Shown: positions 2,255 through 50,568 of the stretch, in pieces | Position numbering within the stretch: the first letter of the stretch is position 1 | How the letters are laid out: each line of letters begins with the position of its first letter | DNA from: Vermamoeba vermiformis | Lineage: Eukaryota | Length of the DNA stretch: 55,623 nt | Reading direction: 5' to 3' | NCBI GenBank assembly: GCA_045837725.1 | Contig: JBEWZL010000114.1 | Span: 1 to 55,623, forward strand | Notes under the pieces: generated by a model | What the model was told of the DNA's origin: nothing | The model's input: the letters and a program-made list of their open reading frames with translations, nothing else | The model's database searches: none | Translations under genes and position numbers: made by a program

Positions 2255-5200
2255 ATGAACAAACTTCTTACTATCGCGGTTATTTTTGCTTTGGCCGTTA
2301 TGGCTATGGCTCAATGTAAGTCTTCGTAAATTGGGTTTACATCCTCCTATTGTTTCTTAAATCTACTTATTAATATGCTCCTCGTATTGTGTACTAATAT
2401 GTTCCTGGTTTAGCCTGCCCTCCTTCAGGATCAGCTTGCAGCGTATCTGGTTCCCCCTGCGTTATTTCTCAAAGTGGCTCTACTGACTCCAGCGACCCTG
2501 GTGTCTTCCCTAGACGAACCAACCTTTACTTCCCTCCTGCCACTAACACATATACTCAAACCATCACCTTCCCTACCCCCACCGTAGGTGAAGTTATGAT
2601 TCTTCAAGACATTGGCCCTGGCGTTGACGCTGATGACATTTCCTCCGTCTCTAACACCATTCAAGCCTTGTACAACTTCTTGGTTAGGGACTGGCCTTCC
2701 CTCAAGTTGGGCTTTGCTACCTTCAACCAATCCCTCGGTAGCTACATGGCTCGTACCACTTTGTCCAACGATGTCTCAAACAGAGGTTACTTGAAGTCTG
2801 CTATCGATGGTGTCGCTGCTAACTACGCTAGACGCAACGATCCTGTTATGCCTAATGGTGCCGTTTTGGATGCTGTTATTGATGCCGCCAAGGACACCAA
2901 CTTTGGCTGGAGCAAGTACTCTGCTAAGTTCATCATCGTATTGACTCGCTTTGGTTATCCTACTGCCTCTCCTTTCATGGACGCAGCTACCTTCAAGAGC
3001 AACTTGTTGCAATATGGCGCTTTGCCCGTCTTCTGCACCAAGATTGATCAAAACCCCGACGGCAAGTCTCAATTCCAAGCCTTGGTTAACTCTATGAAGC
3101 TCGGTGTTGTTGGTAACGGAAAGTAAGTATAGGACCATTTTCGGCAAGCGAATAGAAATTTCATTTTTTTTCCTTTTTTAGACTCAGCGATTAAATTATT
3201 TATTATCGGCATTGACTAACAGTTATCGCAGCACTCCTTCCAACAACCTCCTTGCTCAAGACCAAGGTAACTGGAACCAACTTGGCAAGTTTGGTGTCGA
3301 TGACCTTCGCACTGGCTACTTCGGCATTGGCAGTGGCAACAACCCTAACATCCAACACGTCATCACCCAAGGTGCTTCTTATGTTCAATCAGTCACCTAC
3401 TCCAAGAGCGGTAGCAACATTATTGCCACCATCGTCTACAAGTGGACCGACCCTGTTTACACTGTCTCTCCTTACGTCGTCATTAACTTTGTCGGCTACG
3501 GAGAAGTCATCACCACTATGAAGACTAACACTCCCCCTACCCTATCATCTGGTAGCTACACTCTTGCTCAAACCGCCACTGCCGATTTCTCTTTGATCGG
3601 TACTGATGTTGATGGCAACACCCTCTCCGTCTCCTACAACGGTCCTTCCCCAGCTCAAGGTATCTTCACTGGTACTTCCTCTACTGCTGGCTCTTCTTCG
3701 ACCACCTTCAGCGGTACCTACGATCCCGTAGACTCCTTCAACGGCACCTTCACTGTTCCTGCTACCGTTTCCGACGGATGCGCCACCGCTTCTGGTCAGT
3801 TGACCTTCACCGTCACCTACGTCAACAAGCCTCCTACTGCTTCTGACATCGCGGTCTCTACTAACAAGAACACCGACAAGACGATCGACTTCTCTCAAAG
3901 CATTTCTGATCCCGACACTGCTACCAACGCCTTGAAGGTTGTCATTGTTTCCTTGCCCCCTGTCTCTTCGGGTACTTTGTTGGTTGGCGGCTCTCCCATC
4001 ACTAGCCCCAACACTCAAATCACTGGCCAGTCTGTAGTCTTCCGTCCTGCTACCAACTTCGTCAGCGTGAGCGATGTTCAGTTTAACTACAAGGTCGTCG
4101 ATACCACTAGCTTGGAGTCTAACACTGCCACCGTCAGCGTTAAGGTCGTCAACACTAACTCTCCTCCTACTTTGAGCACTGACAAGAGTTCCATCACCTT
4201 GGCTAAGTCGAGCACTGCTACCATCACCGTCTACACATCCGATCCTGATGTCCCTGACAACGTTGACGTGACTCTCATTAGCAACTCTGTTAGTGGCAAC
4301 TCCAACTTTGCCTCTATCACCGTTAGCACTGGCAACACCTTCTCTGGCACCAACGAAATTGCCACTAACTTGGACACCAACGGCGGAATGAAGTCGTTTA
4401 CCATCACCTTTACCACTGTTGGTACCACCACCGCCTTCTCTGGTTCATTCTCTTTGCAAGCCAAGGACTCATTCAGTGCTACCTCTGGCACTGTCTCCGT
4501 CGGTGTAACCGTGACTGCTACTCCTCCTCCTGCAAACAATGCTCCTATCACTACGGCCCCTGGTGCTCAAAACACTAACTTGAACACCGACATCACCAAC
4601 ATCCCCCTTACTGGCCAGGATCCTGACGCCGCTGACAATGCCAACTTGAGACTCTTCTTGACTTTGTTGCCTAAGTACGGTACTCTCTTCTACAACAACG
4701 TCGCTGTCACTGCTACCGGTGAATTGGCTACCACTCTCCGTCAAAGCCCTGATTCGACCTTCCCTGTCACTTACAGACCTAACCTCAACTCGATCTCTGA
4801 CGACAGCTTCAGCTTTTACGTGCAAGATTCCTCCGGTGCTACTTCTAGCTCTCGTGTTGTCCCCATCACTATCAACAACACTAACCAGCCTCCTACTTCC
4901 GCTGACAAGACCGTCACCACTCCTCAAGACACTCAAGCTTCTTTCTCTTTGAGCACCTTCGATCCTGAAGGTCAAACCACCACCATTGAGCTTGTTACTG
5001 TTCCTGCTGGTGTTACTCCTTCTAGCGGTTCGGTCTCTGCTCCTTACTCCTTCACCTACGATCCTCCAGCTGGTCAATTCTCTAACCCCGATGGCTCTGT
5101 CTTCGCTACTATGACCTTTAAGGCCAAGGACTCTTTGGGCCTTTCCTCTGTCGCTACTTACACTGTTTCCTTCATCATCGACAGACTCAAGACTCCTCCT

Positions 5201-6874
5201 ACTTCTCAAGACGAGACCATCACCACCAAGCAGAACACCGGTGCCTCTGTTGTTCTTCAAGGCAACGGTCGCGCTCCTGTCGTCGCCGTCATTGACATTC
5301 CTGCCGGCTTCAAGGGCACTTTGTACTCTGACGCTGCTATGACCTCTGCCATCAGCACTGGCTTCGCCACCGACAGCACTCGTACCCTCTATTACATGCC
5401 TCCTCAAGACGGCGTTTCTATCAACGGTGCCATCTTCACTCAATTCTACTTCAAGGCTCGTGATTCTGACAGCTTGCTCTCTACCTCTACCTACACTGTC
5501 ACTATCTACGTTACTCCTAACAACTACGGTGGCTCCAAGACCGTTAACATTGACGAAGATACATTCGGTTTGATCACCTTGGCCCCTACCGATAACTTCG
5601 CTTCCACCGACGGCACTGCTTTGAAGGGCGTTATCTCCGCTGTCAACTCTGGCAATGGTGCTCTCTACTTCTGCACTTCCGAGTCTGCTTGCAGCACTAC
5701 CGCTATCTCTGGCACCCCCGTGATCCCCGCCGATGTCAAGTTCGCCAAGTTTGTCCCTGCTCCCGAAGACTCTGCTTCTCCTTACGCCACCTTCTCTTAC
5801 AAGTTGACTGACACCAACACTGCCATCGAAGCCACTTACGATGTTACCATCAACGTCATCCCCGTCAACGATCCTCCAGTCATCCATCCTGACTTCAAGG
5901 ACCGTGAAAGCACCCCTGCTGACACTCCTCTTAAGTTGACCTACTCTGGCACTGACATTGATGATGCCGTCGAGACTTTGATCAGCGTTGTTACCTACTT
6001 GCCTCAACGTGGTAGCTTGTACCGTATCGTCAACGGTGCTCAAGGAACTGAAATCACTGAAGCCGACAGCGTCGTCCTTGCCACTACCCCTGGCAAGTTC
6101 GAAGTTTTCTTCGTTCCTACCGCTGGCTCTTCTGGTCGTAACTACGCCACCGTTGCCTTCGCCATCCAAGATCCTCACGGTGCTCGCTCCAGCAACGCCT
6201 TCGTGACTATCAACGTCACCCCCGTCAACAGACCTCCTACTGTTACGGTTGGCGGTCCTTACAGAGTCGTTCAAAGCGACACTTTGCCCATCACCGAGAC
6301 CACCGTCGCCGACCCTGATGTTGGCAACTTCAACATGTTGGTCACTCTTCAACTCGAAGCCGGCTCCACTGGTACCTTCACTTTGACTGACGACCGTGCC
6401 TTCAAGGGTCCTTGCTCTTGGAACGCTGACAACACCGTCCTCTCCTGCAAGGCTCCTGAGAACAAGCTCAACAGCTTCTTGGCCTCTTTGACCTTCACTT
6501 CTGACGTTACTGGCGTTCACCACATTGTCGTTACTGTTGATGACTTGAACAACGGTGCTACTTCCGATCTTCGTGGCACTCCTGGTTTGACTGCCACCGC
6601 CACCATGGAAATCACTGTCGTTCCCCCTTCCACCGTCGTTACTGACAACAACAACCAAGACTTGACCATCGCCCTCTCCGTCTCTGGTGCTGGTGCTTTG
6701 GCTGCCCTCGGTATTGGTGGTTTCTTCTTGGGCCGCAAGTTGAAGAAGGCTGCTCCTGCTGATGACTACTTCAGCTTCATGAACGACGACAGCACTGACG
6801 TCAAGATCAATCCTCTGTTCGCTTCCAAGTTCGGAGGTCCTGCTGATAACCCTGTCTACACTGCTCAGGTCTAA
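2255..6874 (+). CDS. Sib (similar-to-integrin-beta)-like type I membrane adhesin: signal peptide, vWA-like domain, cadherin/Ig-like repeats, TM helix, two NPxY/F motifs
   Basis: Exons 2255-2315, 2414-3122 and 3232-6874 join in frame; MNKLLTIAVIFALAVMAMA signal; repeated 'VNxPP..D.D' units; Gly/Ala-rich TM; tail NPLF and NPVY; strong C/T-ending codon bias. Confidence 0.8.
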
Positions 6875-31612: not shown

Positions 31613-31905
31613 TGCAAATGTTTTGAAGCAGACTTATGGATCGGATTTGCAAGCTGGTACGAGTCGTTATTTATTCGTTGTCTATTGAAAATAACCATGA
31701 AAGTGGGAAATACGGCATCTATAGAACTTACTTTAGAAGTATAGCAGCTTCGAAGAGAGTTAGCACTGCGAGTTGTTGCACTGGTGCCGGCGCAGAGTAA
31801 AAATGAACGGCAAAAATTTTATCATTTTAAGTTGCAATTGCAATGGAGCGCCGCGGTTACGACCCCTACTCAGATAAAACTCTTTGTTATAATAAGACAA
31901 CGGAT

Positions 31906-34900
31906 ATGTTTACCTGCCTGGATTGCGGTAAAACGGTGGCACCAGCGACAGCCAAATCCCACCGAAAGTCAGATCAATGCTTGAACGTCGTTATAGCAAA
32001 AGGTAATGTCATATGATGGTTTATAAATATTCCGTAACCAGCGAGAGCATTAAATATTTTTTTTTGCACAAGCACGTAACCACACATCATTATTTATTAC
32101 TCGTTATTGATTAAGTAGTGGTAAATAACATTTCTGTATATCAGTGCCACGTTCTGTCTCCCGGTAAGCAGCCGATCGAACCAACGTTTCTGCATCTCTG
32201 CCGAAAACGTTAAAATTATTAATTCAACTATCATAATAAGTATACACATAATAATTAAAGCAATATGCACGATACAATTTATTTTTCAGTGCTGTTTAAA
32301 GTATTTTCGTAATTTAATCAGTTTTCGCATCCGTGCCTCAAGCAGCCAAATTTTAACGAATTCCTGCGATATCGCACTAATAGTTACTCCATATAGTGTT
32401 CTTTTAAAGCGATAGAGTGTTTGCTAGATTCGTCAAAAAAAATTAAAGTGCCCAGATCGGTTTAGAGTTGGTAAGTAAATGTCTGGTCGCACATTATTGT
32501 TCAAGTTAAATCATTAGCTCGTTATAATTACTAACAGGAAATGCTTCTAGGTTTCAACTTTGAGCAACTTGATTGCGACAACAAATGGCCCGTATTGTAA
32601 ACTTGGGTAGCACCTGCTACCTTGGCTCCGCACTACAGTTACTCTTCAGTGTAGATGGTTTCCGCGAGAAAATTCTTGCTTCAAATCCAACAACAACACT
32701 CGGTGTAGAGTTCAAGAGCTTGTTTCAACAGATGAATGACAGGAAGACTATCAACGTCAGAACATTTGCGCGGCTGCTGGGTATCACTGATGAGCAATGC
32801 CGCAAGAACCATGAAGACATACAAGAGTTTCTATTAAAGCTTAGAAGCAAGTTTGATAGTGATAGTGACATTAAAGTAATCATTGATTCAATATTTAATG
32901 GTGTTTTGCAATCAACTGCGACAACAAGTCAATTAGAGCCCTTTTTTGGTATGTCCTTGCACCAACTACAGCAAGCTTCTAACTGATTACAGACATATCC
33001 ATTCCTGTTAGCCATAAGGATGTTGTAGAGGGACTAATTAAAGCCTTCCATGATGTAAGTTTAGGCACTACTTGCAAATTTCTGACCGATGACTAGGTTC
33101 GAGTTGAGCACAAGTTTGCTTGCTTTCCAAATGCTCTATTGCTACATTTGAAGCGTTTTAGTATTGGGCAAAAGGTAGAGACACGCTGTGACTTCAAGAA
33201 GCGAATGGTTATCCCGGCAAAACTTAGTGCAAGTGGTCGTGCAGAGACTTATGTACTTAAATCCATTGTAATGCATGATGGTACAGTGAACGCAGGCCAT
33301 TACTTCATTTACACAATCACTAATGGCCAATGGTTCGAGCTGAATGATGAAAAAGTTTCAATGGGTGTATATATATATTACTAGTACTACTTAAGACTAA
33401 CTGACTGCAGGTTGCTGACACATTCATGTCTCAAACTATGGCTGGCAAGAGGTCAGCTTACATGCTACTTTATGTCCTTGAGAGGGCATCCTCACCAACA
33501 AAAGCAACACAACGCCCTCGCACATCAAAAGTCACTGCTGAATTTGTTCAGTGGGATAGTGTTTCATCTGATGCTGCTGAATCATATAGCTCAGGCAGTG
33601 AATTTTCATTTGATGATGAGTACTATGCAGATGACTGGGTCATGGAAAACCCAGCTCCAGAGAGTGATAGCTCAGAATCATCAGTTGCAAAGACATCCTC
33701 GGTTACTTCAGGTATGTTGGTAACAAGTAAGTTAGTTTTATTAATAGTATTTCAGCAACAAAGCGTCAAGCTAAATTAGCTGGTTGGAAAAATGATGGCA
33801 ACGATTTTGCCCCCAGTAAATCAAGCCTTCCTCCCGCAGCAGGCCCCAAACGGCCAATTATTTTGCAGTTGATTAATGACATTAGAAAAGAAAGATCTCA
33901 GTCTCCATTAAAATCAACATTGGATGTTACAGAGCAAGACTGTTATTTGCTGATTATGCATAGAATAATCAAACACATTGAAGAAAAAACACCTGCAGAA
34001 CTCAAAATAACTGTGAACGACATCAAAGCTTACTTAGGAGTTCGAGTGGCTCAACAATTAGCACCAGGACATGCAGTAGATGATGCATGGGCAAGCTTTT
34101 CACACTCTAGAGCAATGTGGGGCAATCGATGGATTGCCAAAACGATGTTGAAAGATGAATACAAACACATTCACCAGCACAAAGAGTAAGTCCTTTTGTA
34201 ATACCACAAACCATACTGACAGTCGTGTAGTTTTGACTTATATTTTGTTTGGGAGACCCTCAACAAAATATACTCTGAAATCTGGACCCCTTATGGACAT
34301 GTGGCACTTGATGACAAAGCCAATGCTTGGAAGGGACGATCCGTATACAAAATCTATCGACTTCGCAAGCCCTTTCCATGGGCAATGTTAGAATATGTTA
34401 TTGTTGATGAATATGGATGGATAATTGGCTTTATTCCCCGTTATGGCAATTTTGCAACAATTACTCCAAAGTACAAGTCATGGAAGGATAGTTACAACCA
34501 ATACAAATCAAATTCTGGTCCAAAACCTCTACCTTTTAAAACCATCCACCCAAGAACTAGCAAGACCAATTTTGATTTAGAGAAAGCAATCAACTTTCTG
34601 CTATCTCGATTACCAGACAAAGCCTCTGGAAAGCCAGCAGACTTTGTTTCCCAACCAACACTGAAGACAGATTGGACAGCAGAGATTGCTCGCGACCTGT
34701 CATCATACCATGTATTCAGTGATCGAGAATTCTCTGCATACTGGCAGCATTACCAGAAATACAACATAGGTTACACTGTTGGAATAGTTAGCAATTCATT
34801 TCCGTTCTTGTTTCGAGACAACTTGGCTATTGGCTTGGAACCTGGGGATTGGAAATCACTCACTAATATGAAGGAGATTGTGATGTCTTATTATGATCCA

Positions 34901-37900
34901 CAAGGCACTGTATGTCATTGGGCTAGCAACCGTGGCACCAGCGAAGCCATTTCAGAAGTAACAAACAAAGACAACAAAAAACAGAAGTTGAATTATTCAA
35001 CACCACACTTGGTTCAACAGTATAGAAAGTATTTTGCAGCAGTGGATAAGCATAATTATAAGGCAAAGAAGTTTTGTTGGCCATATCGCACCAGAAAAGT
35101 CACAGAACGTTACGTATTTGGAGATTGGGAGAGGTCAGCGCAAGTGCAAGCAGAAATTTTGTACCGGCAGCTTTCTGGAAGAGATATCTCAGCAAAGCAG
35201 TTTTTGGCAAATTTGGCCAAACAACTAGCTTCCGATTTTAAAACAAAGAGAAAAAGAACTCTCACTATTGATGCTTTGGACCTGGCCAATGCAGCAAGTC
35301 GACACAATCCTTACACCCATGTTTGTGCATATGAATTCAAAGAATCAAAAAGATGCTTTTACTGCCAAACAAACAAGATTTATTCGTCAACATTGTAAGT
35401 ACATCAAACTAGAACGAGTTATTGTTAACATTCTCCAGGTATAAATGCTTGCAGTGCAAAGTGGCTCTCCATAAGAAGTGCTGGAAAAAATTTAAGGGTG
35501 TAAATGTTTAAATTTGTAATGACATGTTGTATTACTGAAAGTAGTGCAATGGCATGTTCCATGTTGTGGTGTGACATGATCATGAAAGTGACTGCAGCCA
35601 CTTGACGCAAAGAAGGTCGGGTGTAGGCTTTGGCCTTTGGGTTAAGTCAGTGACTGCAGATTCATTGCACTATTATTCTGCTGGACCTACAGCTGTGTGG
35701 CATGTTCCATGTTGTGGTGTGACATGACCCAAGTATGGGCTGGACTTGATTTGACACGACAAAGGTCGGGTGTAGGCTTTGGCCTTTCGGAATGAGTCGA
35801 TCACTCCAGATTCACATAGCTGACGATGGTTTGGGCTATTATTGAGCTTTGAATGAGTTTTTACCAATATTTGGCTATCGTCTACATTGTATACAAACAG
35901 TTGGTTAAGGAATATTATTTAACATAAAGGCAGTTTACGAAAAGATTATAGCTGCTTCCTTTGAAGAGGATCCGATTCAGATTCAGACCAATAACGAGCT
36001 TGCAGCAGCGCCTTCATTTGGGAGAGAATTTATCATGACTTTAAACGATGAAGAGACATGGGTTTCTGAGGCTTTCGTGGCATTTGGACATACTTGGTAA
36101 TGTTATTTTCTAAAACGAGCTTCGAATCTGAATCCAAATTTTTAGGCAATTCGCTGCCAAAAAAAAATACAATCGGACCTACATTTATTTAAAATATATC
36201 CCAATGAGCGATATAGAATATGATATTCATTTCAACTTGGACATCAAAGTTAATGACAAGATCCGTAAGTTGCTGATCGACTTAAAGAGACGCAATTTCC
36301 TGACATTTTGCAGATGAATTCACAGATTTGCATATAAATACGATAGAAGATGAAGATATTTACATCAAATTTGAGGAGATTTTTGACGCGTTCGAGTTTG
36401 ACTTGATCAAACTGTCAATCAGGAAGATCGAACGAAAGAACGAAGAAGAGTAATGTGGAATTTAATTAAAAACATTACTAAATATTATTTTAGCGATTAT
36501 GAAGCGACTGAATTTCGCTCAAAACGACTCGAAACAATTCATTCGCAATACATCAACAAGCACGCCCGTTTGATAGATCAGTGGCTTTGTAAATGGCAGA
36601 TAAATCGTAAGAATATACAAATATTTAATTAAATAATTAACAACGTAATTTTAGGCCAAGCTGCTCTCGAGTTGTCGCAGATTCACCACACGCCAGGTTG
36701 GATTTCGACCCTTACCGCTCCGACACCCCACATCTACGATCAAATAAGGCCACACTTTTTCAGAGCATTTAAAATGAAGAATCTTGTTTGCAATATTGAT
36801 GGTGTCGACTTTGATCTCCCGTATAATACGCTGGAATCAATTTTGGATCACGTGCTCGAAAGTCCCAAGTTTATGAAAGGTATTTGATTAATATTTAATT
36901 TATTTATAACGCCGAATTATTCCGCAGGTTGGCATTACAAGTCGCAAGATAAGGATCCAAACCACCCGTCAAGTCGTCAAGCGTTCAAGATCTACGAAAC
37001 AGAACACAAAAAGCGTATTGATGCTGGCTACCAACTCGTTCTTCCCTATGTATGGATTGATCATTTTGTTGGTCAAGAGAGCAGAAACAACAGCTTCGGT
37101 TCTGTCATGGTTTCATTCGCTAACTTCTCTACGGATGTGTTGATGACACAAGAATCAAGGTTCTTGGTCGCTACAATTCCTCCTAATTTAAAAGAATTTC
37201 AAGACGACATTATCGACAAGATCATCGTTGATTTCTGCGTACAATTGGAAGAGGGCACACTCGCTAAGAAGAAATTTCCATTGCTTAAAGAGCCAGCTCG
37301 AATATGCGGCGGTCTCTATTGCGTCAAGGCGGATCACGTTGAGAAAGTTGGCCTTGCTGGGGTCGTCGCTACAGGTGGTCATGTCCTGTCCGTTTATACA
37401 ACTACACCAAGACATCGGATTACAGATGTCAACTACAAACGAGAATTCCGAGACCCAATGAAGTGTGAGTTAAATTAAATAATATTCGTACATGCGATAC
37501 TAATTCGCACTTATCACAGCGAAAGAAAAGGTTGATAATTGGTCAAGGTTACCAAAATCAAAACAAAAAGCAGCAACATACTCATCAGGCCTTACCGGCA
37601 AAAAAGTACGTACCTATTTAAAGTCAAAAATGAATCTAATTATTAGTAGTCACCATTCTGGCGACTGAAAATATTTTCGAAAGACTTCTACATGCGATTT
37701 GCCATCTGTTCGTTGCACCTGCTGCATCTCGGCATCGCTAAGAAGTACACTCAAGAAATTAGTCATTTGTTTCCGGTCGCTAATAAGAAGATGCCTAACA
37801 ACAACGATGTCGATGACAAAGGAAAGAAGAAAAAGAAGAAGAAGAAGAAGAAGAAGAAGGAACAAAAGTACCAAAAGAGTAAGCGATTTATTTGACGCAT

Positions 37901-39279
37901 CAAGACATTTACAATTTGACGCAGCAATCAACGAGCGAGCACGACAGTTACCATCCGCACATCACCTCACGAAGATTACAATGCCAATCTTCAATAAAGA
38001 GAATAGTAAGTTCATCTCGTTATGTATTCAACTAATAATTGACTTACCAGACACTGCTGGGCTAACTGGTCGAATGTGGTCAACATGGACTCGTGTTGCT
38101 ACGGGATTGCACGCTGACTTGCTCAAAGACAAGCAACTGCAACGCCTGAGCACTGTCATGGACGGTATAAGGACAATTGATGAGGTTATATGGACTGACG
38201 AGCTATTGGACGCGGGAGTATTGGACAATGTAGTCAAGGAGGTCGTTTCTGCTATAGTTGTAAGTGCGTTTACATGTCAACGGCAACGACACTAACAACA
38301 TTTATCAGGAAACATCGCAAGATGCTCCTGAGGATGTTAGAATCGATTGGGACATACCTAACATCGAAACTCTCTTCGCTCTAACTGAATCGATAAAGTT
38401 CCTGGGTCAACTTTGGTTCCAATCAACGGATCTAGACGAAGGCACGAACAAATTCCATCGCAAGTGCATCAAAGTGACCAATCACAAGAAGATAGCACAA
38501 CATCTGCTCAAGATGGTAATACCTTGTTGAGATGATAGCCTATTATTAATACAAATGATTAGGTTGCCGCACGAAGATCGATTGATTGCCAAGTATTTAA
38601 GACACCCGAGGAGAAGCGAGAATTCGAAGAGTTTAGCAAAGCTAATAAAAAAGAGAAGAAAACTAGGTAATAAACTTACTGCACGATTGATATTCTAATT
38701 ATGTGGCGTTCTTAGGAAGTTCCTTGATGGCTTGCACCCAACGGAGAAAGAGATCGATCGAGATGAACGCGAACAGATTCAACGAGCTCTGGCTGATCTA
38801 AGTACTGACAGAGTCAAGTACAAATTGAAGTCGAGAGAATCGACGCACTATGAATGTTAGTATTAGTTCTATTTGATTAGTACTGACACGTGTCACATTT
38901 AGCCGTCTTTATCAAAGGACGAAAAGTCGTACTGAAAGACAAGCCAACAATGATCTATAGGGTATGTAATATATATAGGAGTGTCGCGTACTTACCTACC
39001 ATGTAGACGCATGATGGAGTAGAGCATCACGGTGAGCTTCAGAACGTGTTCGAAATGGATGTGCTCGTGACCGAAAACGGAACTACTGAAACGAAGAAAA
39101 TGAAGTTCTTTTCGATACAAGCTATCAAATGCATTGAAGACTCACCCTTAACACAAAAGCCATTTGAGTACGAGGACCTAGATTGGATCACGTTGCCCAT
39201 CTTGGACGAAAAGGCCTTCGTATGCATGACCGCTAAAATTAAGGATTATTCAAATGCAAATCGATTTTTCCTCGTGTAA
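31906..39279 (+). CDS. CMC/EnSpm-type DDE transposase, multi-exon, with inferred 3.9-kb first intron
   Basis: VWIDHF (D ~37059), SFGSVMVSFANF, QLEEG, VKADH (D ~37332), CSLHLLHLG, PNIETL..LGQL..STDLDEGTN (E ~38438). Exon 1 (31906-32002, CxxC..H..C) is phase-compatible with the exon starting at 35934. Confidence 0.8.
32585..35511 (+). CDS. USP (peptidase C19) deubiquitinase - piggyBac-like transposase fusion, ~887 aa
   Basis: Exons 32585-32948, 32993-33054, 33097-33366, 33411-33711, 33756-34185, 34231-35394 and 35439-35511 join in frame. USP: NLGSTCY, HEDIQEFL, LHLKRF, HDGTVNAGHY, WFELND, AYMLLY. piggyBac: VALDDK..KGRS..Y..KP..W, YHVFSD, P..V..Y..AVD..RTRK, C-terminal RCFYC..CLQC..LH..C. Confidence 0.85.
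35540..35674 (+). ncRNA. Unknown structured RNA motif, copy 1
   Basis: Four-stem fold closed by AGUAGUGCAAUG/CAUUGCACUAUU; stems covary with copy 2; many G-U pairs favour the + strand. Confidence 0.65.
35690..35822 (+). ncRNA. Unknown structured RNA motif, copy 2
   Basis: Same fold closed by CAGCUGUGUG/CACAUAGCUG; identical core blocks, different but still paired stems. Confidence 0.65.
37823..37859 (+). repeat. (AAG)n tract encoding poly-Lys within the CMC transposase
   Basis: aagaagaaaaagaagaag.. in frame as a run of 12 Lys. Confidence 0.85.
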
Positions 39280-46968: not shown

Positions 46969-48063
46969 TTAAGCGAGTTGATCAAGCTTCTTTTCGCGCA
47001 TATTATTATTATTAAACTCAGAGGCAACGATTCCATATGCAGATTTGTTTCTTATAGTAAAGCCGCAACTCCAACCGGACGTACCGATGTAATCTTGATT
47101 TTTGGGCAGATCGACGTGATAAACGAATATTCCTTTGATGAAATTGGCTCTAGGAATAGCTGTAAATATGGCCTGAAACGTTGACGCTTGCGCAGTATTA
47201 TTTGCCTCGACTTGGCTACAGTCTTCGAAATCTAGCCACGGCGTCGCTATTGATCCGGTGTAAGAAGGCGCGCCTGTCTCTGTGAATATAACAGTCTTGT
47301 TCGATAAATTCATAGCAGCTAGTCTAGCTTGGATTCGTTTATAGAAGTACGTTGCGCGATCCGTCATCTCGTCCAAAGGCGGAGTTGTGTCAGATGTACT
47401 GTTGAGAGGGAAGTACGCGTCGATTCCAATCCAATCTAGCTCATTCCAAAATTGTATTTTACCAAATTCGATAATTAAACTCGCATATGTAACGATGCCA
47501 CTGAATTCCTGACGTACTTGAGAAATTAATTTTGACCAGCGATCTGGGTACTTTGCAGTCATTTTTGGCAGCTCTGTGGCCACAGCAATAGCAGCTACTC
47601 CATATTTCTCGGACAATCTTACGAAATGCATCAAAGTTGAGGTGTAACTTTCGAACCACATCTCGGGATCGATGGGATCGAGATTAATTCCGCCGTACAG
47701 ATCTGAGTCTCTTACGCTCATCAAAATTTTGATCATCACTTTCATTCCAGCATTAATAGCAGTATCAACACCAATTCTAAATGCTTCATCCGTCGGAGTT
47801 TTATCGTCTGAGTTGAAAACAAATGAAGAACTAGTATTGTCTTGTCGAAAATATATGTTGAATTGCAGCCATTGAGGGTTAATATCTCGTGCTATCGTTT
47901 GGATAATTTGTTGCGTCTCTGGTGAGCCCATTACGTTGCTTTTCGAAACGTGCAATACCACGCCAGAATTTTGCAAGATCTCTGCGGGCAATCCATCAAT
48001 ATTATCTACTGCCAATATTACTAGCATAAATAGCACGTAGACGTATTTAATTGGCCCCTTCAT
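46969..48063 (-). CDS. Secreted intronless GH113-like (clan GH-A TIM barrel) glycoside hydrolase
   Basis: Signal peptide; TPTDE, GMKVMIK, WFESY, ATEL (acid/base), FWNELDWIGIDAYFPL, FTETG (nucleophile). Confidence 0.75.
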   Translation of the reverse strand: MKGPIKYVYVLFMLVILAVDNIDGLPAEILQNSGVVLHVSKSNVMGSPETQQIIQTIARDINPQWLQFNIYFRQDNTSSSFVFNSDDKTPTDEAFRIGVDTAINAGMKVMIKILMSVRDSDLYGGINLDPIDPEMWFESYTSTLMHFVRLSEKYGVAAIAVATELPKMTAKYPDRWSKLISQVRQEFSGIVTYASLIIEFGKIQFWNELDWIGIDAYFPLNSTSDTTPPLDEMTDRATYFYKRIQARLAAMNLSNKTVIFTETGAPSYTGSIATPWLDFEDCSQVEANNTAQASTFQAIFTAIPRANFIKGIFVYHVDLPKNQDYIGTSGWSCGFTIRNKSAYGIVASEFNNNNMREKKLDQLA

Positions 48064-48400
48064 GTTATTTTACTTGCTAAGCTAGTTAATTGTCAGTTCC
48101 TTGCAGATTCTTGTTACGTAAACAGCGTTTAGATTGTTTTAAATTTAAAATTTTCTATAACTGGTTTATAAATCTTTCCAATTTCTTTTTCCGTTTGAAA
48201 AATGGACAGAAAAATCGGATTTACGAAAGCTGCTAATGCCCATGATGGCGAGAACTAACCTGATTCGCTGAATACGTTAATTTGGACCTGCAGTGGCATG
48301 TGGTCGCGCGTTTGAAAAAATAAAATTAGTTTTTGTTCTTTCATCAATTCAATGACCGAAGATACCAACTGTGATCAACAATTTAAAATCTTTAAATTAA

Positions 48401-50568
48401 ATGGAAAGATCAACGTCTAACGAGCCCTTAAATGGAGGTAATCTCTCGCATCCAACAAAAATTAGAATTCTACTAACGTAATGATTAGCGCTCAATTTGT
48501 TATTAATTATTCAAGTGATATTTAATATTAAATTAATGTCATTTTAATTAAATTCAAATTCGATTTTTAGACGGCGAAGCGTTTCTGGATCTTAACGGCT
48601 ACTCGCAAACTCCTTACGAGCAAATGCTGGGCGAAACTTCCTATCCAATGGAATATAGAGGTGTATCCCCTATGATAGCTATGTCCAGCAATTTTCATTA
48701 TCCAACACGAAAAGAACAAACAGCAGATCCAACGGATTCAAAACCAAAACAGAACTTCTATTACTCCAGGCATCATAATCCAAACTTCTCCTTATTAGAA
48801 CAACAAATTCAAATATTACACGGCGGTTCCCGAGCTTTAGTTTTCCCTACTGGCATGGGAGCTGCATCCAGCGTCCTGATCTCGCTTTCTCGCAAAGATA
48901 GTACCATCGTGTATAGCGATGAGTTATATCATGACGTACCTGATCTATTAGAAGAGATGCACAACAATTTTGGTTGGAAATCTTACGCGGTTGACATCTG
49001 CAACACGAAACAAGTCGTTGAAAAAGTTAAAGAGGTACGATCTTAAAAACCAATATAATATCATACCTCGGGTTACTGGTGCAATATTAATATTATATAA
49101 CAAGGTCGATGCTAGAATTCTGTTTTTGGAGACTTGTTCAAATCCGAGCAACAAAGTGCCTAGTTTGAAGAAATTAGTCGAACAAGTACGAGAAGTGGCT
49201 CCCAAGTGTATTATAGTAGTAGATAATACGTTTATGAGTCCAGTTCTGTTCAGACCACTCGACTACGGAGTCGACATTGTTATCGAATCCGCTACAAAGT
49301 ACTTGAGCGGTAAAGGAGACGTTTTGCTAGGCGTAGCTGTTCTTAGAAAAAGCAAAGGTAATATATTCATGCTTATTATGTTATCAGACACCCTTTTGAA
49401 GGATTTTAGAATTTAGTTCAACGGATCTGACCCTATTTTTAGAGCCTAACGGAGTTCTGGATAATGCACTAGCTAATATCGGAGAATCTTTATATAGATG
49501 GCGATTACTATCAGGCTGCGCTCCATCACCAATGAACTGCTGGCTCGTGAGCAAGGGTCTCGAAACATTAGGCATTAGAATGCCGCACGTGTCAGCTACA
49601 GCCATGGAAGTAGCCTTGGCACTAGAAAAGAGTAAGTAATATAACAGAAATAAGTTTATATAGGCATTCAGTGAACTGTCTTCGCTTTTGAAATCATTTT
49701 TGGTACAACAGGTCATTTTAAACTTGAATTTTTGTTTAGAACTCATCTAATTGCACTGTAGCGAGATTATTTTATGATTTTTTGACTGAAATTTTGCATA
49801 GTACGGCCTTTAAACGAAAAACTTTTCTGTATGACCCTGTCATAATCTACGAACTTTTTATTTACTGGTTGACCTAATTTTTTAATCCTTACAGTTCCGT
49901 GCGTATCACGGGTGCTCTATTGTGGCTTGCCGTCACATCCCTCGCACAAAAGAGCGAAGAAATTGTTCGGTGACAAGTTCTCAGGCATCATTCGGTTCCA
50001 CATTCCAGGCAACTCAATCATCGTTGGTCAATTGCAACAAGACTCGGGATTGGTGGCAGCTGTTTCGCTCGGCGAGTCACATACATTATTGCCTCCGTCG
50101 CAACAAGGACACATTGCCGTGTTTCCCGGCGATGACAAAAAGTACCCGGTCATGAGCGGTTTTTGGTTCCGAATTGCTATTGGATTAGAATCAGCCAAGG
50201 ATATTAAGCAGCATTTATTATACGCATTTGCAGCACAAAAAGAATTATGCGTAGAATTAGGCGTCGTAAAGAAAATCAACGAGAAAAAACAAAAATTGGA
50301 GATTAAAATTACCGACAAAGAGCTGCTAAGTGATTGGAAGAAGAATATTAATAATAAGATGGTATTTATAGTCGTTAAGGAGATTAAGAAGATATTTTTT
50401 GTTTCACTGAAAGACACCAGCCCGAAAGACTCGTCATTGAGCTTGAAAATTCCTTGGACTGCACAAGACCCTATTAAAGACCATATCAAGCCTGATACGC
50501 AGCTATTCACTTTCAAGCATTGGTTGCCACTCGCACGAGAGTGCCAAAAGATTGTAGAATCAAAATAA
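48401..50568 (+). CDS. PLP-dependent cystathionine gamma-synthase/lyase family enzyme with C-terminal extension
   Basis: YSRHHNP, ALVFPTGMGA, ETCSNP, VVDNTF, ESATKYLSG (PLP Lys), YCGLPSHPSH, SLG, RIAIGLE. Confidence 0.88.

Follow-up and report, generated by a model that had tools for sequence, protein, structure and literature searches.

What is the pair of structured RNA repeats that directly follows the stop codon of a transposase gene in Vermamoeba vermiformis, and what might it do there? The locus lies in a 55,623-nucleotide (nt) stretch of genomic DNA (assembly GCA_045837725.1, contig JBEWZL010000114.1, positions 1 to 55,623 of the forward strand), which we refer to in full as the window, and the gene in question, USP-piggyBac, encodes a deubiquitinase-transposase fusion. 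To our knowledge, conserved RNA structures with covariation support are very rare in association with eukaryotic DNA transposons; the known cases belong to retroelements, RNA viruses or prokaryotic insertion sequence (IS) elements. Here, both copies of one clean fold persist across lineages whose neutral sites are saturated, between the stop codon of an intact and unusual fusion gene and the right end of the element that carries it.

The pair consists of two copies of about 133 nt with one fold on the + strand, at 35541-35673 (unit 1) and 35690-35822 (unit 2). Two exact blocks define the repeat: each is present two times and no more in the 55.6-kb window, block 1 (28 nt) at 35552-35579 and 35700-35727 and block 2 (26 nt) at 35613-35638 and 35762-35787, and for both blocks shuffled sequences gave 0 occurrences, with 0 expected. 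The period is 148-149 nt, in agreement with a first-pass annotation of the sequence that had placed two copies about 149 nt apart right after the USP-piggyBac stop; that stop codon (35509-35511) closes an open reading frame (ORF) with UCH and DDE_Tnp_1_7 domains and lies 29 nt before unit 1. Tandem Repeats Finder, run on 34000-38000, detected an AAG microsatellite alone and did not report the RNA pair, because the copies are too dissimilar outside the blocks. The architecture shared by the copies is a four-way junction with about 5 unpaired nucleotides, built from a closing stem of 10-12 base pairs (P1), hairpin A (26 nt, block 1), hairpin B (3-4 base pairs) and a long arm that comprises P3, P4, an asymmetric internal loop and hairpin P5 (block 2). 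In unit 1, P1 spans 35541-35552/35662-35673, hairpin A 35553-35578, hairpin B 35580-35591 and the long arm 35592-35659, with the P5 hairpin at 35612-35638; in unit 2, the corresponding coordinates are 35690-35700/35812-35822, 35701-35726, 35728-35739 and 35740-35809, with the P5 hairpin block at 35762-35787. Folded alone, unit 1 reaches a minimum free energy (MFE) of -52.5 kcal/mol (z -3.78), equalled by 0 of 200 shuffles, and unit 2 reaches -49.0 kcal/mol (z -2.65), equalled by 2 of 200. All the stem pairs listed in the first-pass annotation (the closing stem, UCAU/GUGA versus CCCA/UGGG, CUGCAG/CUGCAG versus CUGGA/UCCAG, and ..UGAC/GUC..) reappear in these MFE folds. A public sequencing run with a different organism label (X3) contains a 257-nt contig that equals window 35323-35579 with 1 difference; it stops at the exact end of block 1, as expected if a 30-nt repeat breaks the assembly graph.

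A second locus allowed the fold to be examined comparatively. A metagenome scan with a profile of three proteins produced 156 pattern matches, from which a single locus emerged, L001 (4379 nt). Its transposase exon has 73% protein identity to that of the window, and the same tandem pair follows its stop codon on the same strand, at approximately 3482-3618 and 3636-3768, with a stop-to-unit-1 gap of about 21 nt. Homology between the two loci, at both the nucleotide and the protein level, extends from the start of the UCH exon to window position 35918 (L001 523-3854), covering the whole gene and 3' region and stopping there; the flanks are unrelated, and no exons of the gene that hosts the element in the window are detectable in L001. 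The L001 units likewise adopt the four-way junction when folded alone, with energies of -48.2 and -43.6 kcal/mol. A search of the 60 kb of both loci with a covariance model made from all four units (R1) recovered exactly those four, at 129-150 bits (129.1 and 131.7 bits for window units 1 and 2), and nothing further at E<=10, which rules out a third unit in the tail downstream of unit 2. In the viral contig and genome contig collections, neither the exact block-1 pattern nor the transposase protein profile found a match. As judged from the two loci, the duplication of the unit predates the split of their lineages.

Covariation among the four units supports the fold. In the RNAalifold consensus, 14 of 47 pairs have undergone one or more double compensatory changes, and standard pairs fill 94.7% of the 188 cells, compared with 84.2 +/- 1.7% in shuffled alignments; on each of five measures, 0 of 500 shuffles reached the observed value. 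As a control, partners slid by 1-3 columns paired in 32-38% of cells and left 1-4 compensatory pairs. The changes are found in 6 of the 11 pairs of P1, whose sequence differs in all four units, in 2 of 3 pairs of hairpin B, in 5 of 14 pairs of P3/P4, and in 1 of 10 pairs of P5, which has in addition 5 one-sided G-U/A-U or U-G/C-G changes. Hairpin A is identical at 26 of 26 positions in all six pairwise comparisons, so that covariation neither supports nor opposes its stem. The first-pass annotation had suggested a structure under selection and had proposed looking for covariation in homologs next to related piggyBac genes, and it is in such a homolog that the covariation was found. Because the orthologous locus has the same pair with compensatory changes, we place the pair far beyond chance.

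The fold can also be assigned to a strand. Across the four units, 33 of the 188 cells are G-U pairs, which would read as A-C mismatches on the - strand, and the - strand folds (-34.5 to -41.8 kcal/mol) are weaker by 9-14 kcal/mol than those of the + strand (-43.6 to -52.5 kcal/mol). The fold therefore belongs to + strand RNA.

Selection on the region becomes apparent when it is set against neutral proxies, which are saturated between the window and L001: introns are 44-55% identical (20/45 positions for the intron at 34186-34230 and 24/44 for that at 35395-35438), third codon positions are 49% identical (191/388), and the sequence beyond the unit matches at 20/40 positions. Identity is 17/26 in the spacer from the stop codon to unit 1 (35512-35540), 89/131 in unit 1, 11/16 in the 16-nt linker between the units (35674-35689), 91/133 in unit 2 and 62/86 aligned positions in a conserved 3' tail (35823-35918), all on the + strand. 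On these figures, constraint extends over all 408 nt of the 3' region, in which invariant stretches are interspersed with covarying stems. Taken together, the comparisons between the loci show that the fold is real, that it is under purifying selection, that it is a + strand structure and that it is linked to the gene. A reading by which the repeats are a product of chance, or of a neutral tandem duplication without function, can appeal to the number of loci, which is two, but it leaves the exact blocks unexpected and has to contend both with conservation against saturated neutral sites and with covariation above all 500 shuffles on five measures; we regard it as effectively refuted by the last two and give it next to no credence.

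The tail contains the blocks CUGACGAUG..UUGAGCUU, a U5 run, CGUCUACA and CAGUUGGUUAAGGAAUAU. The U5 run (T5 in the DNA) lies 35-36 nt past unit 2 in both loci, at window 35858-35862 and L001 3803-3807, and is possibly an RNA polymerase III-type terminator or a U-rich binding site. A conserved hairpin in the tail was ruled out, as its consensus energy is just -3.4 kcal/mol. Neither AATAAA nor ATTAAA occurs between the stop codon and the end of homology in either locus.

The four units do not count as four independent samples, because the units of L001 are partly homogenised. Their hairpin B is identical at 11/12 positions and their internal loop plus P5 at 39/40, compared with 7/22 for P1 and 19/30 for P3/P4, a distribution that points to partial gene conversion, in a local tract, within the L001 tandem pair; the window units have only the P5 block and hairpin A in common. 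This pattern bears on two proposals of the first-pass annotation. Its description of the internal loop as variable holds between the window units and fails between those of L001, and its suggestion of variable guide loops is weakened by the near-identical loops of the L001 units; the variable parts are mostly stems that covary, and so look structural and not like guides. A third proposal, a pseudoknot between the P5 loop UGUAGG and downstream sequence, starts from motifs that are present, CCUACA at 35686-35691 and UCUACA at 35881-35886, but it is not conserved: L001 has CAUAGG in the P5 loop, AUCAACA without compensation in the linker that follows unit 1, and an unchanged UCUACA in the tail, which leaves a UAGG/CUA contact of 4 bp at most, in 3 of the 4 units.

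Could the pair belong to a known RNA family? At gathering thresholds, Rfam 15 (cmscan) returned 0 matches on the whole window. Lowering the threshold to E<=10 yielded, for window 35400-36000, a structureless long noncoding RNA model alone (24 bits versus a gathering threshold of 80) and, for L001 3400-3900, four C/D small nucleolar RNA (snoRNA) models at 11-22 bits versus gathering thresholds of 38-75, which we take as noise on both loci and which upholds the earlier statement that the fold could not be placed in a known family. Box C/D snoRNAs have a C box (RUGAUGA) inside the 5' terminal stem and a D box (CUGA) inside the 3' terminal stem; here, of the 4 units, only L001 unit 1 has a C box, at position 9 within the P1 strand, which is variable, and CUGA is found in 1 of 4, at position 42 in the loop of hairpin B and not at the 3' end, where the conserved junction reads AGAUUC. 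H/ACA snoRNAs are laid out as a hairpin, an H box (ANANNA), a second hairpin and an ACA three nt from the 3' end. By eye, ANANNA appears in the L001 linker only (AGAUCA) with none aligned in the window, the ACA after unit 1 is separated from the stem by the 16-nt linker and does not abut it, and the units are branched and 133 nt long. Transfer RNA, transfer-messenger RNA and tRNA-like structures were rejected on 0 genes found by ARAGORN in 35300-36100, and a microRNA precursor was rejected as the stems vary while the apical part is conserved. In exoribonuclease-resistant RNAs (xrRNAs), a pseudoknot between loop and downstream sequence forms a ring around the 5' end, and the UGUAGG-CCUACA pairing that would supply it has neither counterpart nor compensating change after L001 unit 1. 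The internal loops are short (4-6 and 7-8 nt), and a standard kink-turn with a 3-nt bulge was discarded, as inspection by eye allows just a version with a 2-nt bulge, and that in only 3 of 4 units.

Known ribozymes were likewise set aside: the hammerhead core, CUGANGA, is present in 0 of 4 units, and no Rfam ribozyme model matched even at E<=10 on the short stretches scanned. Alternatively, each unit might belong to a new class of self-cleaving ribozymes, whose cleavage would create the 3' end of the transposase RNA or release the units. Ribozyme families resemble the layout seen here, with invariant nucleotides in covarying stems and a multi-helix junction, in tandem in a mobile element, and the lack of a canonical poly(A) hexamer would fit such an origin of the 3' end. 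We nonetheless think it unlikely, as the junction has only about 5 unpaired nucleotides and invariance covers an entire hairpin, stem and all, and not junction or loop nucleotides, a pattern more suggestive of a binding site. We class the pair as a new RNA family whose general kind is known: conserved structured elements in the 3' regions of transcripts from mobile elements. The literature surveyed, including passages of PMC5381638, mentions neither an RNA structure in piggyBac 3' regions nor a USP-piggyBac fusion.

The gene upstream of the pair spans 32585-35511 on the + strand and is recognized by its Pfam domains, by a path search and by homology to L001 along its whole length. An open path leads from the ATG at 32585 to the TAA at 35509-35511 through six GT..AG introns of 42-65 nt and encodes about 870 amino acids, with predicted borders; Pfam places a UCH domain at 32573-32986 and DDE_Tnp_1_7 (PF13843, E 9.1e-10) at 34220-35398, both in + strand ORFs. 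In the protein of the large exon (P0001), D31, D168 and D276 correspond, in a weak alignment (E 0.42) with the piggyBat transposase 9c0f, to its LDE, MDN and VDR positions, which we take to be the catalytic DDD triad. The enzyme may be active, because all three residues are invariant in three close relatives. The transposase lineage is small: among 1.84 billion proteins, relatives of P0001 number 41 representatives at E<=1e-3 and 7 at E<=1e-30; the only close ones are P0002 (73%), P0003 (58%) and P0005 (69%, a fragment), the others among P0004-P0009 standing at about 30%. No UCH domain was found in the 10 relatives scanned, which are gene calls on short contigs, and no longer fused relatives of P0001 scored.

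Inverted repeats resembling terminal inverted repeats (TIRs) enclose the gene and the RNA pair. The left arm (32019-32040, 22 nt) is complementary at 18 of 22 positions (82%) to the right arm (35902-35923), which overlaps the end of the conserved tail; both are given on the + strand. The 14-nt core of the repeat, which reads TGGTTAAGGAATAT in the right arm, is identical at L001 3838-3851 and has two occurrences in the window at <=2 mismatches, in the left arm and at 35902-35915. In piggyBac-like transposons, terminal inverted repeats are flanked by a TTAA duplication; by eye, TTTA (32020-32023) and TTAA (35919-35922) abut the two arms here, and in L001 the right flank reads GGCA and a left arm would fall just off the contig. 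On sequence grounds, the unit looks like a piggyBac-like element of about 3.9 kb with an intact ORF. The internal loop of window unit 1 contains GGUUAAG, which equals the TIR-like core but is in the same sense and, by eye and at the two loci, is absent from the other 3 units.

The proximity of this right end raises the question of whether the repeats act in DNA, as subterminal transposase-binding repeats to which the RNA fold is secondary. The right TIR-like repeat is no more than about 380 bp away from the pair, ATGTTCC in hairpin A resembles by eye the ATATTCC of the TIR-like motif, and piggyBac-like elements often carry subterminal direct or inverted repeats, according to a survey of the superfamily (PMC5381638). 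This explanation seems to us very unlikely, as it does not account for 14 compensatory pairs and the full replacement of stems with pairing kept, nor for G-U cells that make the fold strand-specific, and in both elements block 1, searched as 11-mers with <=1 mismatch on either strand, has no further copies at the left end or elsewhere.

A splice junction places the element within another gene. A spliced contig from a close relative that differs by a few nt per 100 (X5) joins an exon ending at 32002 to an exon that starts at 35934; the USP-piggyBac gene and the RNA pair therefore sit, in sense, inside a host-gene GT..AG intron of 3931 nt (32003-35933, + strand; exon 1 at 31843-32002). The 5' part of the contig matches 31983-32000, it skips further introns of 44-50 nt, and it covers only the downstream host gene. 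The RNA pair lies 111-392 nt upstream of the host intron acceptor, and the TIR-like arms are set in from the splice sites by 16 nt at the donor and 10 nt at the acceptor, in an intron that contrasts in length with the others seen nearby (42-65 nt). If TTAA is a target-site duplication, the host intron without the element would be about 32 nt long; the arms, if transcribed, could pair and bring the host splice sites together. Host exon 1 encodes a small Cys/His-rich N-terminus.

Splice-site-like motifs also occur within the 3' region. GTAATG at 35516-35521, 5 nt past the stop, is the hexamer of the host intron donor, and conserved CAG trinucleotides end the linker (35690-35692) and precede the TIR-like core (35897-35899); used together, they would place unit 1 or both units in an intron of the 3' untranslated region (UTR). 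One could thus view the folds as aids to splicing architecture, in which about 300 nt collapsed into compact structure, together with pairing of the TIR-like arms, would help to remove the 3.9-kb host intron or, in a variant, a 3'-UTR intron from GTAATG (35516) to a conserved CAG (35692 or 35899). A spliceosome used to introns of 42-65 nt meets one of 3931 nt here, with inverted repeats close inside both of its ends; the GTAA motif after the stop and the CAGs that end linker and tail are conserved in L001; and the distance from GTAATG to the linker CAG, without unit 1, would be 25+19 = 44 nt in the window. We consider this proposal rather improbable all the same: the 3'-UTR junctions (35516/35692/35899) are purely motif-based candidates, the RNA pair is conserved in L001 even though the flanks there are unrelated and the host exons undetectable, and the collapse of a spacer leaves an invariant hairpin of 26 nt unexplained.

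The reading we favor, with a confidence that falls somewhat short of even, is that the two units form a cis-acting, protein-binding 3' ribonucleoprotein module of the transposase transcript that sets the fate of the mRNA. The units would be carried, on the + strand, in the 3' region of the USP-piggyBac transcript, where P1, free to vary in sequence, would isolate each unit as an independent four-way junction, and the invariant hairpin A and the partly invariant P5 loop (RUAGGCUU) would be displayed as predicted protein-binding sites. Two units would serve a dimer, or two copies, of a sequence-specific protein, the binding of which would set mRNA fate through 3'-end formation or protection, export, or translation. 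Hairpins that proteins read sequence-specifically have a fixed stem sequence, as hairpin A does. We favor a role in 3'-end formation or protection, export or translation because AATAAA and ATTAAA are lacking and because the gene is nested in sense in a host intron.

The same features invite a different interpretation, in which the units would give rise to stable small RNAs of about 135 nt that act in trans. These would be cut from the transposase 3' region or from the host intron after its excision, shielded by P1 and by proteins bound to them, and would function elsewhere, possibly with the USP-piggyBac protein. The 5' and 3' ends of each unit pair and close it off as a domain, an arrangement seen in many stable small RNAs; the pair lies inside a host intron that is spliced out; a U5 run follows unit 2 at nearly the same distance in both loci; and the sub-threshold Rfam matches on L001 are all to snoRNA families. 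We hold this interpretation to be possible without being likely. The best snoRNA score is 22 bits versus a gathering threshold of 70, and the window has no such match; the C and D boxes are each confined to 1 of 4 units, the D box away from the 3' terminus, and by eye no H box or ACA arrangement is conserved; there is no evidence of a promoter or terminator, and a T4 run lies inside L001 unit 2. Conservation of linker and tail would be unusual for spacers, and it fits one continuous functional 3' region, as in the mRNA module that we favor, better than spacers between separately processed small RNAs.

Several points weigh against the mRNA module. Its putative binding protein is a proposal only; the covariation behind the fold comes from two loci (four units), with the L001 units partly homogenised; and the absence of AATAAA is weak evidence, as the real poly(A) signal of the organism may differ. 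Stable small RNAs cut out of the transcript would also fit the long closing stems and the U5 run that is conserved downstream of unit 2. Two RNA sequencing runs with the same species label have 0 reads on 34700-36700, and since the flanking genes are likewise without reads, these runs are no test of expression.

Whichever reading holds, the pair constitutes a new RNA family, and its covariance model, R1, is ready for searches of eukaryotic assemblies. If the units act in cis, they would show how a transposon gene nested in an intron controls its own transcript. If they have a protein partner, they would raise the prospect of RNA-assisted piggyBac enzymes, with a bearing on genome-engineering tools, and a transposase as that partner would be categorically new.

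Elsewhere in the window, we note two long intronless ORFs with bacterial-type domains, at 3182-6874 and at 46969-48069 (- strand), in surroundings that otherwise bear introns. One encodes cadherin-like, Big_9 and SibA-like immunoglobulin domains at a higher G+C content of 0.47-0.51, and the other encodes a GH113 protein whose nearest Atlas clusters are 100% bacterial; both are candidates for horizontally acquired genes. In combination with introns of about 45-65 nt, they bring bdelloid rotifers to mind. Two ORF pieces at 48552-50568 match the N- and C-terminal parts of PF01053 (a pyridoxal-phosphate-dependent enzyme of Cys/Met metabolism), an apparently ordinary intron-split gene. The AAG microsatellite, (AAG)12, lies at 37824-37859 in a + strand ORF region of the downstream gene.

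Comparison with known systems places the locus among several precedents. The PGBD3 element in an intron of CSB (ERCC6) likewise consists of a piggyBac-derived ORF lying in sense in a host intron; the PGBD3 ORF is reported to be spliced to host exons as a fusion, and no structured RNA is mentioned for it (PMC3902484). Here, the sole acceptor tried, at 32551, is by eye out of frame with host exon 1, unlike the PGBD3 fusion. Box C/D snoRNAs share with the pair an intronic location, a terminal stem and, by eye, kink-turn-like GA/(A)UGA motifs in the internal loop of 3 of 4 units, but the would-be guide regions of the pair are base-paired and covarying. The triple-helix clamps of expression and nuclear retention elements (ENEs) are structured elements near the 3' ends of transposable-element transcripts that are sometimes duplicated and for which protection of the RNA has been proposed; they require a U-rich internal loop, whereas that of the pair is purine-rich (RYRA.. 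/ GGRWURA). The xrRNA and dumbbell structures of flavivirus 3' UTRs are, like the pair, tandem and independently folding multi-helix junctions directly after a stop codon, with conserved loops and covarying stems, and the viral ones act in cis on the fate of the RNA. They differ in being three-way and about 70 nt long, as opposed to four-way and about 133 nt here, and comparison through Rfam models only gave no match; the downstream pseudoknot that defines xrRNAs is not conserved in the pair, and the pair is carried by a DNA-transposon-like gene of a eukaryote, as opposed to an RNA virus.

In position, the closest likeness is to the omega RNAs or reRNAs of TnpB, IscB and Fanzor and to the bridge RNA of IS110, which occupy the same place, between the transposase stop codon and the right end of the element on the sense strand, and are kept with the gene. 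The partners of those RNAs are of the RuvC or DEDD type, as opposed to the DDD type of piggyBac, and we know of no piggyBac DDD transposase that uses RNA; moreover, a guide of that type would be unpaired, complementary to the ends or the target of the element and variable with them, and no such segment is evident in the pair, whose variable parts are paired stems and which has no sequence or Rfam similarity to these RNAs. By analogy, the units could be cofactors of the USP-piggyBac protein itself, bound through hairpin A with one unit per subunit of a transposase dimer. In that role they could scaffold, regulate or direct either excision or integration, or could target the deubiquitinase domain to chromatin. 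We rate this reading as quite unlikely. Were it true, the locus would provide the first RNA-assisted enzyme of the piggyBac family, of the DDD type and with its RNAs at the right end of the element, as in the omega and bridge RNA systems.

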